A DNA stretch of 59,933 nucleotides from positions 64,001-123,933 of the forward strand of contig NZ_JAFBCZ010000018.1 of the NCBI RefSeq assembly GCF_016907925.1, in the 5' to 3' direction. The notes under the pieces are model-generated. The model saw nothing but the letters and a program-made list of their open reading frames with translations. It was not told the DNA's origin and ran no database searches. This document shows, piece after piece, positions 2,017-7,076 of this stretch. Both the position numbers and the translations under genes were made by a program. The DNA is from Herpetosiphon giganteus (lineage in GTDB: Bacteria > Chloroflexota > Chloroflexia > Chloroflexales > Herpetosiphonaceae). Positions within the stretch are counted from its first letter, which is position 1. Each line of letters opens with the position of its first letter.

Positions 2017-2151
2017 TCAGCAATAGAGCTTGGGGTTACTGCCTCAAGCTCTTTTTGCGCAACAATCAGCCCCTAAACCACGTACCTTTTGCAAGATTTT
2101 CTCCCAATTCTGGCCATTTTCTGCGATGTTCTTTTTGAGAAAGGGCTTATT

Positions 2152-3525
2152 ATGTTTGGCGTTTTGCGTGGGTGCTCGCCGCACCTCGATCAATCAACCC
2201 ATGCCGCTTGGTGGAGCCATATTTGTGGCATGTGCCTCACATTGCGCGATCAGCATGGCCAAGTTGCCCGCATCACCACCAATTACGATGCGGCCTTGCT
2301 TTCGGCGCTCTACGAAGCGCAACGCCCTGAACAAGGCGCACGGCGCACGAGTGTTTGTGCTTTGCGCAGCTTTCGGGCGCTCGATGTGGTAGCGGCTGAT
2401 GATCATGGGTCGCGCTATGCATCAGCGGTCAGTTTGCTGATGGCAGCAATTCGGCTGCGGGATAATGTGGCCGACCGCGATGGCTGGGCTGGCAAAGTGC
2501 CCTTCGTTGCCAATGGCGTGGCCAAGCGCTGGGATAAGCAGGCAGAGCAAACCGCCCGTGAATTGGGCTTTGAGCCAGCTTTATTGCGCGAACAAGCAGT
2601 TGCCCAAGCAGCAGTCGAAGCCTTGCCCAACGCCGATTTTTGCACCTATTCAGCGCCAACCGAGGCCGCTGTGGGCGCGGCCTTTCGGCATACCGCGATT
2701 TTGGCCAACCAGCCAAGCAACGCCGAGCCGCTGGAGCATATGGGCCGCATGTATGGGCGCATGATGTTGCTGCTCGATAGCTATGGCGATTTTGCCGAAG
2801 ATCAAGCGCGTGGCCATTTTAATGCCTTGAATGCTACGCCCCAAGCCGAATTGCGTACCACCGCGCATAAAATTTTCAACGATGCCTTGGCAAGCTTGCG
2901 CCAACACTGGCAACGCTTAACGCTTTTGCAAGCGCATTTGGTTGAAGTGCTGTTGCTGAATATGTTGCCAGCAATTGGCTCAAAAGCTTTTGGGGCTTGC
3001 AAACGCCATAGTTTGGTCTGCGCTACTGCATTGCCAGTGGCCGCCGCCTTGTTGCCAGCCATGGCCAGCGATTACGACGACGACCCTTCGCGCCGCGACC
3101 CCAACCGCGCCTACACTGGGCCAACACGAGCGCTCAAACCCCACGAAAACCCAGAGTATCAAGGCCAATATCCACAACAACCGCCCTACCAAGGCCAACA
3201 ATATCCTTCACAATATCCGCCACCGTACAATCCCAACGATCCAGGGATGTTACCACCTGGCACGTTGCCGCCAGCCAGCTCGCATCCAGCGCCGCAGGGC
3301 CATTATCAAGATAGCAAGCGCGATGTAGCCTTAGGTGCGGCCTTGTGTTGCTGCCAAAGCCGCCGCCATTCGCATCGCTCGCGCAGCCGCTGTTGTGATA
3401 GTGATTGCTGTGATTGTTGTCAATGTTCATGTTTATGTTGCGATGCAGCTGATCTATGCGAAGGCGGCTGTAGCTGTTGCGAATGCGGGAGTTGCTGCGA
3501 ATGCGGGAGTTGCTGCGATTGCTAA
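2152..3525 (+). CDS. Three-part protein: DUF5685-like N-domain (MFGVLRGC...HICGMC), Pro/Gln/Tyr-rich linker, and a 59-aa metallothionein-like tail with about 26 Cys
   Basis: Start moved to the MFGV methionine inside ORF 2089..3525. The N-terminal MFG-x-RxC...CGxC pattern matches my recollection of DUF5685. Tail reads CCCQSRRHSHRSRSRCCDSDCCDCCQCSCLCCDAADLCEGGCSCCECGSCCECGSCCDC. An 18-bp unit gaatgcgggagttgctgc is tandemly duplicated at 3478-3513. Confidence 0.55.
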   Translation: MFGVLRGCSPHLDQSTHAAWWSHICGMCLTLRDQHGQVARITTNYDAALLSALYEAQRPEQGARRTSVCALRSFRALDVVAADDHGSRYASAVSLLMAAIRLRDNVADRDGWAGKVPFVANGVAKRWDKQAEQTARELGFEPALLREQAVAQAAVEALPNADFCTYSAPTEAAVGAAFRHTAILANQPSNAEPLEHMGRMYGRMMLLLDSYGDFAEDQARGHFNALNATPQAELRTTAHKIFNDALASLRQHWQRLTLLQAHLVEVLLLNMLPAIGSKAFGACKRHSLVCATALPVAAALLPAMASDYDDDPSRRDPNRAYTGPTRALKPHENPEYQGQYPQQPPYQGQQYPSQYPPPYNPNDPGMLPPGTLPPASSHPAPQGHYQDSKRDVALGAALCCCQSRRHSHRSRSRCCDSDCCDCCQCSCLCCDAADLCEGGCSCCECGSCCECGSCCDC

Positions 3526-3591
3526 ATTAAAAGCTAACCCCGCCATGCGTCTAGGCTGCATGGCGGGGTCGCAGTGTGTATCTGTAAGTTT

Positions 3592-4038
3592 TTAGGCGCG
3601 AGCAGTAATTTGGCGGCCAGTCAAGCGTGGGCTGAGCAAGTTGTCGAGCGCCAATGAGCCTGAACCAAGCAAGACCAAGGCAAGGCTTGCCCCAATCAAA
3701 GCCAACACATATTCGTAGCCACCAGTTTGTGATGAGAAGCCATTTTCTAAGTGCACAGTTACCAAGGCCACAACCATGGCAATTGCTTCAGCCACTGCAA
3801 CATAGCGGGTAAAGAGGCCGAGAATCAACATAATCCCGCCAATCAGTTCAGTCGCAATCAACAAAACTGCCATAAAGGTTGGCGCTGGAATCCCAAGGCT
3901 GCCCAAAAAGACAGCAGTGCCTTCAATCCCACCATTGAATTTTTCCCAACCATGCATAAAGAAAATAAAACCAACCACAATTCGCAAAATAGCGATCCCA
4001 AACCCTGGCTTATCGAGTAATTTATTGATACTTGCCAT
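3592..4038 (-). CDS. DoxX family membrane protein
   Basis: 148 aa, 4 TM segments, MHGWEKF motif typical of DoxX. RBS aaggag upstream. Confidence 0.7.
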   Translation of the reverse strand: MASINKLLDKPGFGIAILRIVVGFIFFMHGWEKFNGGIEGTAVFLGSLGIPAPTFMAVLLIATELIGGIMLILGLFTRYVAVAEAIAMVVALVTVHLENGFSSQTGGYEYVLALIGASLALVLLGSGSLALDNLLSPRLTGRQITARA

Positions 4039-4354
4039 GACCGTGTGCTCCTTTCAAGCAGAGGTGAATTTCAAACCTCGGCCACTATAAAGCTAGATAG
4101 TCCGAAACAACGTCCTTGCCCACGTCCCAAAGGTCAATAAAAGATTAATAAACGATGAAGTAGCGATGAAGATTGCTGAGAATTCCAGCTAACAAACTTA
4201 ATTTTAGCCACACCCACGCATAAACGTGCGCAAACAGCAAACCAAAAAGCCTTTAGTTCGCAATCATTCTTGGGACATCCACAGCATGAAAAAGCCCCTC
4301 ACACGCTAGGCATGCGCGGGGTTGGGGTAAGCTTACAAAAGGAAGTTATGAAGA

Positions 4355-4488
4355 TCCCCTCACCCCAACCCCTCTCCCATTCGATGGGAGAGGGGCTTTA
4401 ATGTCGTAGTTTTTGCATGATTGGTGGTAAAAACGGGTGCTCCCCCTCGCCCGCGTCAAGTGGGAGAGGGGGTTAGGGGGTGAGGGCA
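4355..4488. repeat. REP-like nested palindromic element: cctcaccccaa + cccctctcccattcgatgggagagggg ... ccccctcgcccgcgtcaagtgggagaggggg + ttagggggtgaggg
   Basis: Two internal perfect or near-perfect hairpins flanked by outer inverted arms. Lies immediately 3' of the FTR1 gene. Related elements at 43941-44033, 48588-48633 and 59803-59853. Confidence 0.7.
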
Positions 4489-4496
4489 TATTCAAT

Positions 4497-6827
4497 TTAT
4501 TTGGCAGGGGCACTTTGGCGTTTAACCGCAACATCGGTTTTGCGATGTTGCAAGTGCTCGGCAATCACATACGAGCCAATTACGAAGGCCGCAGCCGCAA
4601 CTTGTGAGGCAATGCCTTCCCACGTTGCATAGAAGCCTAGCCACATATTGGCCCAATACGGAATTTCAAGGCTGCGAATTGGGTGCAGCGGCATCCAACC
4701 AACCAATTGCATAATGTGCACCGTGTTGCCAACCATAATCAGTAGCACCGCGCCAATCATCACGCCAGTAACGATCAGCATTTTCTTATGCGGTAATTTG
4801 GCTTGCAAACCAAAGACCAGCACGCCAACTAAGGCTGTGCCGCCAAGGCCCAGCGCAACCCCGCCAAGCACCACTTGAGTGCTGGCTTCGAGCACCAGCG
4901 CTTGCAAAAAGAGTACGGTTTCAACGCCTTCGCGATAGATGCTGGTAAAGCCCAAGGTTATCAAACCTAGCCAAAGCCCAGCTTTGCCGCCGATAATTCG
5001 GCGTTTTTGGGCATGGAAATTGGCCATCCAGCCTGTCCAATAGACTTTGTGGAAGAACCAGTTGGTGATCAACAGCAACACGCCAATCGCAATCAACGAA
5101 ACAATCGCCTCGATTTTTTCTTGATCGCCACGCCGAATCAGTTCGTTGATCAGGCCGCGTGCCAGCAACCAGGTCAGTACAGTAGCCACCATCGCCAAGA
5201 CTGCGCCAATCCAAATTGGCTTGCGATACGTGCGTTGTTCGCCAATTTTGAGGCTGGCGAGCAACGAGGCCAAAATCAATACGGCCTCTAAGCCTTCGCG
5301 GAACACAATCACGGCAGCGCTGGTAGCCACAGCTTCTGGGGTGCTGGAGCCACCAAGGGCATCTTGCGCCAAATCAAGTTGTTTATCCAAGGCTTGGCGG
5401 CTGGCGCGAATATCGCTCAATGGCGCTTTTTGGCGAATCAACTCTGCAAGGCCAGTAAATTCGTCTTTGCCATACCAAAAAAGGTTTTCAATGGGGGCTT
5501 TGTATTCTGGCGCAAATACAATCAAGCGCGCTTCTGGGCCAGATTCGAGCACAGCGTAGGCTTCCAAACGCGCCGATTCGGCCAGATCATATTGATCGCC
5601 AGCAACAGCATTTTCCATTTGATCGAGCATTGAATCGATCACATCGAAATCGCCTTCGAGGCTCGATTTTTGCCACTCGGCGGGCATGATTGAAGCCAAG
5701 GTTGTGTTAATGCTATCAATTTTGGCTTGCACTGCATCGGGTTCGGCGACGCTGGTGCGTTGAGCCGCAGCGGTCAGGATTGTTTCCAATTCGCGTAGAT
5801 CGCTGGCAACTTGTTGGGTTTTAGTTGGATCAATTTCGACCAACAAGCTTTCGAGGTCGCTGAAGGCAGCAGCAGCACCATTGCGGAAGGTCGTGGCTTC
5901 TTGAATTTCGAGGTCAAGTGTGACTTGGCCGTTGCGCACGCCACGTTCATATTCAACAGGCACAAGGCTCAAGAATCGGCGCAATTGACCAGCGCGGCGC
6001 ACTTGTTCCGCTGGGCTTAGTGGAGCCGCCCGAAAGCCGCTGAGCGAGCCTTCAAACGTTGTAATTGCCGTTTCGAGGTTGGTGTTGCTTAGCGCTGCTT
6101 CGCGCAAGGCTTGAGCATTGGTTAATGCACTATCAGCTTTATCAGGATGTTGCCCACGATAGGCTGGCTCTAAAATATTAAAATAGCCTTGAATTGCTGC
6201 GCCTGCCTCTGCTTGTTGAATCCGATTGCCTTTTTGGGCAGCGCTACGCAGGGTGCGCAAACTTTCGTTAAGTTTGGCTTGGTAGGTATCCAACAAATCG
6301 GCATCGAGGGCAATGCGAGCATCGGCGGCGCTATAGGCTGCTTGTTTCCATTGCTCGATCGCGCGGGCGGCATCGCCGTTGGGGCGTGAAAAGCGGGTCG
6401 CATTGCGAAACTCGCGGACTGGCAGCCATTGCAAGGCTTGTTCAGGCTTGCCGGTATCGATTGCTTGGCCGACGATGCCATAGCTCGCTTTGAGCAAATC
6501 AATCCAGAGCAAGGCGCGCTGTTGAGCAAAGGCCGCAACATCGTTCGCAGCCAAGGCTTGATCTAAATCTGCCCAGCGTGTGGCGATTTCAGTAGCCTGT
6601 TGGGGAGCCAAGCTGGTCAAATCCTTGGCCAGCGCTTGATCATATAAGGCTTGGGCTTCGCTGACCAAACGTTTGGCGTTGGCAGCATCAGTTGTGAGCG
6701 ATAATTGGGCTTGCACCAACAACGAACGCACCGATTCGCTGGCCTGGGCTGGTGATGGTTCGGCGGCCATGGCCGACCATGGCAATAAAGCAACGACCAA
6801 CGCCAGCAAAAAACGACGCAACCACAT
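4497..6827 (-). CDS. FTR1/EfeU-family high-affinity iron permease fused to a ~540-aa N-terminal secreted helical domain
   Basis: C-terminal half has two RExxE motifs (REGLEAV, REGVETV) in a 7-TM region. Signal peptide MWLRRFLLALVVALLPWSAMAAEP, so start is placed at the MWLRR methionine within ORF 4497..7010. Confidence 0.75.
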   Translation of the reverse strand: MWLRRFLLALVVALLPWSAMAAEPSPAQASESVRSLLVQAQLSLTTDAANAKRLVSEAQALYDQALAKDLTSLAPQQATEIATRWADLDQALAANDVAAFAQQRALLWIDLLKASYGIVGQAIDTGKPEQALQWLPVREFRNATRFSRPNGDAARAIEQWKQAAYSAADARIALDADLLDTYQAKLNESLRTLRSAAQKGNRIQQAEAGAAIQGYFNILEPAYRGQHPDKADSALTNAQALREAALSNTNLETAITTFEGSLSGFRAAPLSPAEQVRRAGQLRRFLSLVPVEYERGVRNGQVTLDLEIQEATTFRNGAAAAFSDLESLLVEIDPTKTQQVASDLRELETILTAAAQRTSVAEPDAVQAKIDSINTTLASIMPAEWQKSSLEGDFDVIDSMLDQMENAVAGDQYDLAESARLEAYAVLESGPEARLIVFAPEYKAPIENLFWYGKDEFTGLAELIRQKAPLSDIRASRQALDKQLDLAQDALGGSSTPEAVATSAAVIVFREGLEAVLILASLLASLKIGEQRTYRKPIWIGAVLAMVATVLTWLLARGLINELIRRGDQEKIEAIVSLIAIGVLLLITNWFFHKVYWTGWMANFHAQKRRIIGGKAGLWLGLITLGFTSIYREGVETVLFLQALVLEASTQVVLGGVALGLGGTALVGVLVFGLQAKLPHKKMLIVTGVMIGAVLLIMVGNTVHIMQLVGWMPLHPIRSLEIPYWANMWLGFYATWEGIASQVAAAAFVIGSYVIAEHLQHRKTDVAVKRQSAPAK

Positions 6828-7076
6828 ACAAGCTCCTAAAATTGTGGTTTGCTGCTGCTCACAATGGGCAACAGCAAAATAAACCGACAAAGGACGTGAA
6901 CTGTATGCCAACAGTTCACGCCCTTTACTGCTTAAGTTTTGTGATGGAGGGACGCACACCCAAACTCCATCGACCTTGCTCCGGCGCAACTTCTTTCTCA
7001 CTGAGCGCATAGGTATACCTGTGATACAAGCAGTATACCTATTTTGGTTCGATTTGCGAATCAGTTCGGGAACCGA

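Follow-up and report, generated by a model that had tools for sequence, protein, structure and literature searches.

Here, we report that a 59,933-nt stretch of DNA from Herpetosiphon giganteus (hereafter the window) encodes a DUF5685 protein of 457 amino acids (aa) in which an enzyme-like domain with an isoprenoid-synthase fold is fused to a C-terminal tail of ~40% cysteine. This combination has not been described before and suggests a link between isoprenoid chemistry and thiol or metal chemistry. DUF5685 is an uncharacterised branch of the isoprenoid-synthase superfamily that is defined by its fused cysteine-string tail; the literature searched contains no paper on DUF5685 and no functional study, and searches on metallothioneins and the isoprenoid superfamily gave nothing relevant. 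The explanation we favour, tentatively and with somewhat less than even confidence, is an enzyme domain that binds a prenyl diphosphate and works together with a metallothionein-like thiolate tail responsive to metal or redox state. Residue numbers refer to the 457-aa protein, whose parts are located in the window as follows.

2152-3525, + strand: complete coding sequence of the DUF5685 protein with Cys tail, 457 aa plus stop codon (list of open reading frames, sequence)
2152-3000, + strand: N-terminal domain (N-domain), residues 1-283, DUF5685, trans-isoprenyl-diphosphate-synthase (class I terpenoid synthase alpha) fold (Pfam, AlphaFold2, Foldseek, profile alignments)
2173-2358, + strand: family-specific four-Cys site, C8 (2173-2175), H23-x-C25-G-x-C28 (2218-2235) and C69 (2356-2358) (conservation)
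2461-2475, + strand: first Asp motif D104-N-V-A-D108, counterpart of the DDxxD of the first aspartate-rich motif (FARM); D104 in 269/270 and D108 in 268/270 family members
2776-2823, + strand: second Asp motif D209-xxx-D213-xxx-D217 plus N224, counterpart of the region of the second aspartate-rich motif (SARM); each kept in 266-269/270
3013-3066, + strand: hydrophobic segment L288-A305 (LVCATALPVAAALLPAMA), possibly membrane-inserted (hand-computed mean Kyte-Doolittle value ~1.9 over 19 residues)
3070-3324, + strand: disordered Pro/Gln/Tyr-rich linker, residues 307-391, with short internal DNA repeats (predicted local distance difference test score, pLDDT, <50; direct repeats D2 and D3 at 3157-3221)
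3346-3522, + strand: Cys-rich tail CCCQS...CCDC, residues 399-457, with a C-D-C end; 24 Cys in 59 residues (40.7%)
3361-3390, + strand: basic stretch RRHSHRSRSR, residues 404-413, just N-terminal to the acidic Cys core (sequence)
3391-3522, + strand: acidic tail core, residues 414-457; 21 Cys in 44 residues (48%)
3478-3522, + strand: 18-bp tandem repeat, 2.5 copies, encoding ECGSCC-ECGSCC-DC (Tandem Repeats Finder, period 18, 96% matches)

Fold and conserved residues of the N-domain

A Shine-Dalgarno-like GAGAAAGGG lies 5' of the ATG, and the MFGVL start is common to homologues. An original prediction, made from the DNA letters without database searches, had assigned the N-domain to DUF5685, and the hidden Markov model check confirms this: Pfam PF18937 matches residues 1-261 over profile positions 1-254 of 272 with E=1.7e-26 and 93.6 bits (cut-off 26.7). 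All 16 diverse homologues scanned match PF18937 as well. In the AlphaFold2 model, residues ~10-280 have a pLDDT >90 and everything after residue 283 is disordered. Foldseek assigned the N-domain model to the isoprenoid-synthase fold with a probability of 1.00 and returned MoeN5 as the top match, placing the domain within the all-alpha isoprenoid synthase fold. The original prediction had not recognised this fold, which alters the set of functions that can be considered plausible. An N-domain profile searched against PDB sequences gave only four matches, all trans-polyprenyl diphosphate synthases, with a best E of 2.2e-4. At the level of sequence families, the domain stands outside polyprenyl_synt (PF00348), which none of 16 members matched at E<=10. 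There is no bona fide polyprenyl synthase in the DNA examined.

HMMER alignments to the polyprenyl synthases 4lob, 4jxy and 5ze6 place ieDHvaD of the N-domain over vhDDVVD of the FARM, and LlDayeDyeaD is aligned to iiDDilDytsD, the SARM of 4lob. The first and last Asp of the two motifs line up with D104/D108 and D209/D213, respectively, and the second Asp of each is absent. In the family, the aligned motifs take the forms D104-N/H-x-x-D108 and D209-S/A-x-x-D213, the latter followed by xxxD217. The residues D104, D108, D209, D213, D217, N224, E156, D46, R40, C25, G26 and C28 are each kept in 261-269 of 270 aligned members, and Arg40, Arg72 and Arg/Lys203 are likewise conserved in this alignment. 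The residues by which trans-isoprenyl diphosphate synthases bind isopentenyl diphosphate (IPP) and its diphosphate are not retained: the 'KT' motif has P169 in place of its Lys (P169-T170; Pro in 262/270), no RRG follows D108, and FQ is replaced. Because the Asp motifs are invariant while the KT, RRG and FQ residues are missing, we infer that the diphosphate- and Mg-binding half of the active site has probably been kept and the IPP half lost. This pattern is the one found in transferases of this fold, for example the ComQ family and MoeN5.

The N-domain also carries a Cys/His cluster that had been pointed out in the original prediction, and its HICGMC Cys pair indeed proved invariant across the family. 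C25, G26 and C28 are kept in 261-266 of 270 members, a Cys in the N-terminal segment in 239/270, and a Cys in the hairpin of residues 62-78 in 268/270. Judging from this conservation, the four-Cys set probably forms a Zn or Fe-S site.

The cysteine-rich tail and the linker

The tail had been predicted as a 59-residue, metallothionein-like segment with about 44% Cys. The length stands, while the Cys share is lower (40.7%). Its composition, spacing and disorder do resemble those of metallothioneins, that is, high Cys arranged as CC, CxC and CxxC with few aromatics and His. Family-wide, the tails consist of 42% Cys, 16% Asp, 15% Gly, 6% Ser and 4% Glu, with ~1% Lys+Arg, ~1.5% aromatics (F+Y+W) and 0.8% His. 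They are 20-185 aa long (median 40) and have, at the median, 19 Cys and a charge of ~-9; the Cys-to-Cys spacings CC (32%), CxC (35%) and CxxC (23%) together account for 90% of intervals. Both AlphaFold models, those of the window protein (tail pLDDT ~30-35) and of a short-linker homologue, show a disordered tail. The likeness goes no further than this: searched by itself, the tail found no Pfam family at E<=1, hence no metallothionein family, and no PDB chain at E<=10, so that it matches neither a curated sequence family nor a solved structure of metallothioneins. When the window and 33 related loci (427 kb in total) were scanned in six frames, at least 10 Cys per 40 residues occurred almost only in DUF5685 tails, and at one place in the window. 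The tail is thus a feature far beyond chance.

To follow the tail through the family, a profile of the N-domain only was built, so that the tail could not recruit matches. Among 1.84 billion proteins it picked out 5,288 cluster representatives at E<=1e-3, which makes DUF5685 a large family, with members in Chloroflexota, Streptomyces and other Actinomycetota, Acidobacteriota and cable bacteria. The tail survey covers the closest few hundred of these ~5,300 representatives; ~4,000 more distant ones, probably including the Firmicutes nearest the Pfam seed, lie outside it. A Cys-rich tail is present in each of the 36 homologues of the first round whose C-termini are complete, which come from Chloroflexota, Streptomyces, Nonomuraea and other groups. 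Of the 176 top homologues that reach 320 aa, 156 carry no fewer than 10 Cys in their final 50 residues, the others being truncated or out-of-frame readings. The tail is also present in 83/83 sampled members of a divergent, mainly acidobacterial clade whose N-domains are only 21-27% identical to that of the window protein. Nearly all of 26 loci from GTDB species, Ca. Electrothrix included, encode a tail, with 16-26 Cys in the last 60 residues. In two Chloroflexia metagenome-assembled genomes (MAGs) that seem to lack it, the tail lies in a frame other than that of the N-domain (L026, 7079-7198; L027, 6918-7037). Because a Cys tail is present there in another frame, these two loci are best read as assembly frameshifts in repetitive tail DNA. 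As far as the sampled sequences tell, the Cys tail is obligatory in the DUF5685 family, being neither a lineage-specific fusion nor a frameshift. The earlier view of a fusion particular to the window gene is therefore abandoned, since nearly every sampled member, across several phyla, has the tail.

The same frameshift artefact as in L026 and L027 explains the Ala/Val/Thr-rich C-termini of the database homologues P0116, P0129 and P0174. Separately, the Anaerolineales MAG L023 has two Cys-rich tails on the same strand, at 3016-3135 and 4288-4407 and ~1.2 kb apart, which points to two tandem DUF5685 paralogues.

The nearest relatives of the window protein are those of other Herpetosiphon species, with an N-domain identity of 93-99%; the DUF5685 protein of Herpetosiphon sp. 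NSE202 is 98% identical. Within the genus, ratios of nonsynonymous to synonymous substitution rates (dN/dS) are 0.03-0.06 in the N-domain, 0-0.05 in the linker and 0.06-0.23 in the tail; no indel breaks the frame, and all 24 tail Cys are kept. The tail is under purifying selection within Herpetosiphon. A perfect 18-bp duplication, placed by the original prediction at 3478-3513, is present 3 bp further on (3481-3516), with the unit GAATGCGGGAGTTGCTGC at 3481-3498 and again at 3499-3516. The window allele of this locus reads ECGSCCECGSCCDC. Since the other five Herpetosiphon genomes read ECGSCCECGDCCSCDC, the duplication in the window is a recent in-frame homogenisation accompanied by a 6-bp loss. 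The suggestion that repeat slippage shapes the tail agrees with the indels between Herpetosiphon species, which are in frame and repeat-sized. An 86-aa open reading frame at 3335-3595, described earlier as antisense, actually lies on the + strand, one base off the gene frame, and reads the Cys codons as Ala/Val/Ile.

These data also bear on the possibility that the tail is an artefact, i.e. a frameshift, a sequencing error or an untranslated repeat. Its DNA is of low complexity and repetitive, and some database homologues have out-of-frame C-termini. However, six Herpetosiphon genomes hold one frame and show numerous synonymous changes alongside in-frame indels, tails occur across phyla, and the tail-less database entries are the frameshifted ones, as in L026 and L027. 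We give this explanation a practically negligible probability. In line with the comparison of homologues, on which the reality of the tail had been made to depend, a frameshift or artefactual origin is ruled out by the genus-level codon analysis together with the cross-phylum conservation.

The C-terminus itself is conserved. A C-x-C ending is found in 112 of 244 tails compared with 40.7 +/- 5.5 in composition-preserving shuffles, and a CDC ending in 88/244 compared with 7.8 +/- 2.7 (11-fold). The last C-x-C lies at most four residues from the terminus in 227/244. These counts are not phylogenetically independent; nonetheless, the pattern is seen in three phyla.

Between domain and tail, the Pro/Gln/Tyr linker of the window protein has no Pfam match. 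Despite its low complexity it is nearly invariant within Herpetosiphon, yet it is not conserved between genera and is missing from others, and a genus-specific role seems likely. The homologue P0007 contains three perfect copies of a 17-aa P/Q/Y repeat. Family linkers vary in length, with a median of 62 aa and a median charge of +6, and a polybasic run precedes the tail in 75/156 homologues. In the window protein, segment 288-305 and a second, short hydrophobic segment (392-398) flank the P/Q/Y stretch, with basic residues on the outer flanks. Two transmembrane (TM)-like segments lie between domain and tail in 77 of the 83 members of the divergent, mainly acidobacterial clade, and such a TM hairpin would keep domain and tail on one side of the membrane. 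Most Chloroflexota members have no TM-like segments. The window protein has no signal peptide, and the conserved domain begins at residue 1.

Gene neighbourhood and flanking DNA

Upstream of the DUF5685 gene and on the same strand lies lgt (1114-2016; Pfam LGT). Directly after its stop codon, at 2027-2056 (+), an 8-bp stem (AGAGCTTG / CAAGCTCT) with a 12-nt loop is followed by TTTTT. This hairpin is probably the lgt terminator, missed by the consensus scan owing to its long loop. Because the hairpin and T-run follow lgt, the DUF5685 gene probably has its own promoter. Downstream, a convergent DoxX gene (3592-4038, - strand; Pfam DoxX E=3.8e-25) ends 66 bp from the DUF5685 stop codon, and the gap between the two genes contains the following element.

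3537-3569, no strand assigned: perfect 12-bp inverted repeat (13-bp stem in the RNA fold) between DUF5685 and DoxX; arms 3537-3548 and 3558-3569, 100% complementary

The 81-nt RNA fold of this gap has a free energy of -34.1 kcal/mol (z = -3.3), and the inverted repeat is probably a bidirectional terminator. An Rfam scan of the window returned no RNA family. Beyond DoxX and 0.5 kb further on, genes for an FTR1 permease and an imelysin follow on the minus strand. The FTR1 domain occupies only residues 564-760 of an 837-aa protein (4497-7010, -), whose N-terminal ~560 residues have no Pfam assignment. Upstream of lgt, a 296-aa open reading frame (181-1071, +) has an HExxH motif (AAHEFVHQ), an N-terminal hydrophobic segment and no Pfam match; it may encode an uncharacterised membrane-anchored metalloprotease.

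The neighbour genes of 26 loci (5 Herpetosiphon and 21 others) were compared by all-against-all clustering. Recurrence of lgt, DoxX, FTR1 and imelysin is limited to the five Herpetosiphon genomes, and no neighbour is common to the 21 other loci. Contexts in Streptomyces, Nonomuraea, Acidobacteria and Ca. Electrothrix differ too. The original prediction had tied the gene to DoxX and the iron operon, so that the protein would work with these neighbours in thiol or iron homeostasis. The short distances invite this idea, DoxX being separated from the stop codon by 66 bp and the FTR1 and imelysin genes following 0.5 kb beyond. However, these neighbours occur in 0/21 loci outside the genus, and DoxX is on the opposite strand, convergent and behind a strong hairpin. 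With DoxX also below the HvfX cut-off (70.1 bits; cut-off 80), the link is dropped as very improbable.

The DoxX score also matters for a further explanation, in which the protein would be an enzyme-fused precursor of the type of ribosomally made, post-translationally modified peptides (RiPPs). Like a borosin, it would have its tail modified, cleaved and exported as a Cys-rich peptide or metallophore. An enzyme followed by a C-terminal low-complexity 'core' resembles the autocatalytic precursors of the OphMA type, and DoxX is weakly similar to the HvfX maturation proteins of Cu-binding RiPPs. Against this, the DoxX score falls short of the HvfX cut-off, and only within the genus are the two genes adjacent. 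A scan of six flanking genes gave LGT, DoxX, FTR1, imelysin and one gene without a match, with no MNIO/DUF692 within 5 kb. The set that marks an HvfX/DoxX-associated Cu-binding RiPP (bufferin-like) system, i.e. an HvfX-scoring DoxX with MNIO (DUF692) and DUF2063, was thus not found. No protease, transporter or tailoring gene recurs beside the gene, and the tail is too variable in length (20-185 aa) and sequence for a defined product. We regard this explanation as quite improbable.

In Acidobacteria, a gene for a DUF4112 membrane protein lies directly upstream of DUF5685 in 4/4 loci. In two of the four, a flavin adenine dinucleotide (FAD) amine-oxidase protein related to HpnE/CrtI is encoded between the two, scoring 79 bits against HpnE (cut-off 283). 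The regions concerned are L029:5401-5943, L030:5402-5944 and L033:3053-3580 and 3597-4961. Two peroxiredoxin genes and a Fur-family gene follow 1-4 kb downstream in 3/4 loci. These neighbours are weak hints at isoprenoid and redox biology and may reflect shared ancestry.

The redox genes could also be taken to indicate a thiol redox switch or sacrificial thiol buffer, in which the tail, once oxidised or attacked by electrophiles, and whether or not Zn is released, would reversibly switch the domain. Hsp33 and the zinc-binding anti-sigma factor RsrA are models for such switches. The Cys-dense cytoplasmic tail and the N-domain's own four-Cys site would suit this role, as would the peroxiredoxin, Fur-family and KatG genes within 1-4 kb in 3/4 acidobacterial loci. 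However, the peroxiredoxin/Fur proximity is seen in one related acidobacterial group only, where it may stem from shared ancestry, and is absent from Chloroflexota and actinobacterial loci. Known switches, moreover, use 2-4 Cys and not ~19. A switch of this kind consequently seems improbable to us.

Among the remaining loci are two from Ca. Electrothrix (L013, L015), whose family members share 42-44% identity with the N-domain of the window protein. The L013 gene has NifU-like and GGGtGRT genes before it, and after it come genes for a histidine kinase, a LuxR-type response regulator and a NicO nickel transporter; the context of L015 is different. In Streptomyces sp. ISL-100 (L031, 5270-7224), a divergent SepF paralogue adjoins and a DUF1684 gene lies downstream. 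Streptomyces orthologues are named 'Regulatory protein' or 'Expression regulator' in UniRef, names for which no evidence could be traced.

Function of the two modules and comparison with known systems

Combined, these results suggest a cytoplasmic, probably membrane-proximal two-module protein that would be typical of the whole DUF5685 family. The most likely ligand of module 1 (residues 1-283) is a prenyl (allylic) diphosphate, bound via Mg2+. This module lacks the residues with which chain-elongating synthases hold IPP and is therefore probably a transferase, or a synthase of another kind, and not a chain elongator. Module 2 would be the obligatory disordered Cys/Asp/Gly tail on a variable, usually basic linker, presumably held in the cell as metallothionein-like metal-thiolate clusters with Zn, Cu(I) or Fe. 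More speculatively, the tail might respond to metal or redox state and, in cis, gate, position or supply the enzyme domain. This explanation is in keeping with the fold, with the obligatory tail and with the enzyme-like residue conservation, which holds across several phyla despite an N-domain identity of only 21-26% between clades. It also fits the apparently metallothionein-like chemistry of the tail (Cys content, spacing, few aromatics and His, disorder), and the peroxiredoxin-peroxiredoxin-Fur group near the gene in 3/4 acidobacterial loci weakly hints at a redox setting. Several points weigh against it. The tail has no match among metallothionein Pfam families or PDB chains, and no metal-homeostasis gene or metal-sensing regulator recurs beside the gene, with one ArsR-type regulator in 34 loci. 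Accessory metal-binding tails elsewhere, such as those of SlyD and HypB, are variably present, and that of DUF5685 is obligatory. The conserved terminal C-[D/S]-C suggests specific recognition rather than bulk chelation, and it is not obvious why an isoprenoid enzyme that depends on Mg should require soft metals.

A different explanation, self-S-prenylation, makes the tail the substrate. The domain would ionise a prenyl diphosphate at the Asp/Mg site, and its own tail thiolates, possibly Zn-activated, would attack the carbocation. The product would be a multiply lipidated 'cysteine string' that serves as a membrane anchor or is later released. The tail Asp residues and the C-terminal carboxylate would stand in for the IPP diphosphate at the acceptor site. 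In this way, the fusion across phyla, the lost IPP site, the acidity, the conserved C-terminus and the membrane-proximal linker would be explained better than by a metal- or redox-responsive tail. The Asp motifs are intact with the IPP-site residues lost, and Arg40, Arg72 and Arg/Lys203 stay in place. The terminal C-x-C is conserved well above composition expectation, and the flexible linker would let the tail reach the active site in cis. The usually basic linker and, in the divergent, mainly acidobacterial clade, the TM hairpin would put the protein at the membrane. Peptide prenylators with the trans-IDS fold (that of the trans-isoprenyl diphosphate synthases) are known (ComQ, PalQ, ChrPC and StheQ), and MoeN5, the top Foldseek match, is a non-elongating prenyltransferase. 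However, every trans-IDS-like peptide prenyltransferase characterised in the literature modifies Trp, not Cys. A median of 19 Cys is far above what anchoring needs, and a net charge of ~-9 is unlike known lipidated Cys strings. AlphaFold did not dock the tail, even in a short-linker homologue, a result that is uninformative at a tail pLDDT of ~40. Finally, we know of no bacterial protein S-prenylation system. Taken together, we consider self-S-prenylation unlikely, albeit the main alternative.

With an isoprenoid-fold core that has an apparently intact diphosphate/Mg site and a tail with a conserved C-x-C end on almost every member sampled, a domain of unknown function becomes a concrete, testable problem. 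If the tail is a metal-thiolate module, the family would represent a new coupling of metal or redox state to isoprenoid chemistry. If it is an acceptor, it would represent a new kind of protein lipidation and a new class of biocatalyst. Should self-S-prenylation be true, DUF5685 would provide the first system for the Cys prenylation of proteins in bacteria, and the first case of a trans-IDS-like enzyme that modifies Cys and does so within its own chain. Homologues occur in the genetically tractable Streptomyces, which makes both ideas directly testable.

In comparison with the trans-isoprenyl diphosphate synthases, i.e. farnesyl (FPPS), geranylgeranyl (GGPPS) and hexa- to decaprenyl diphosphate synthases, DUF5685 shows 11-16% identity and no match to Pfam polyprenyl_synt. 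It lacks the second Asp of each motif (DHxxD and DAxxD), and its IPP site is not conserved, with Pro in place of the KT Lys and no RRG or FQ. Furthermore, it adds an N-terminal four-Cys element with a beta-hairpin and the obligatory Cys tail. DUF5685 shares the fold of the isoprenyl-diphosphate-synthase (IPPS) superfamily with ComQ, PalQ, the P-domain of ChrPC, StheQ and MoeN5, which have been re-purposed from elongation to a non-IPP acceptor. ComQ-type enzymes act in trans on the Trp of a separate peptide, whereas the proposed acceptor in DUF5685 is Cys of its own tail. According to the literature, their second Asp motif is degenerate and metal-free, whereas both motifs of DUF5685 are invariant.

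Eukaryotic lipidated Cys motifs include the C-terminal CXC/CC geranylgeranylation motifs of Rab proteins and the cysteine string of DnaJC5. The DUF5685 tail resembles them in its C-x-C end, its dense Cys run and the adjacent basic stretch. In contrast, the enzymes that modify Rab and DnaJC5 are unrelated to DUF5685 (alpha-alpha-barrel prenyltransferases and DHHC acyltransferases), and their strings are hydrophobic or basic, not acidic. DUF5685 and the borosin OphMA both place a flexible C-terminal segment, possibly the enzyme's own substrate, after an enzyme domain, an analogy of architecture only. Unlike DUF5685, OphMA is an S-adenosylmethionine (SAM) methyltransferase, and borosin loci include a protease, none of which recurs at DUF5685 loci.

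Like metallothioneins, among them the fungal Cu-thioneins and the bacterial SmtA/BmtA and MymT, the tail combines ~40% Cys in CC, CxC and CxxC with almost no aromatics or His and with Gly/Ser/Asp/Asn as filler, and such sequences are disordered without metal. It differs from them in being far more acidic (net ~-9), in having no sequence-family match and in its conserved terminal C-D-C. Metal binding is a predicted property of the tail, and, unlike the free-standing small metallothioneins, the tail always sits on one particular enzyme-like domain.

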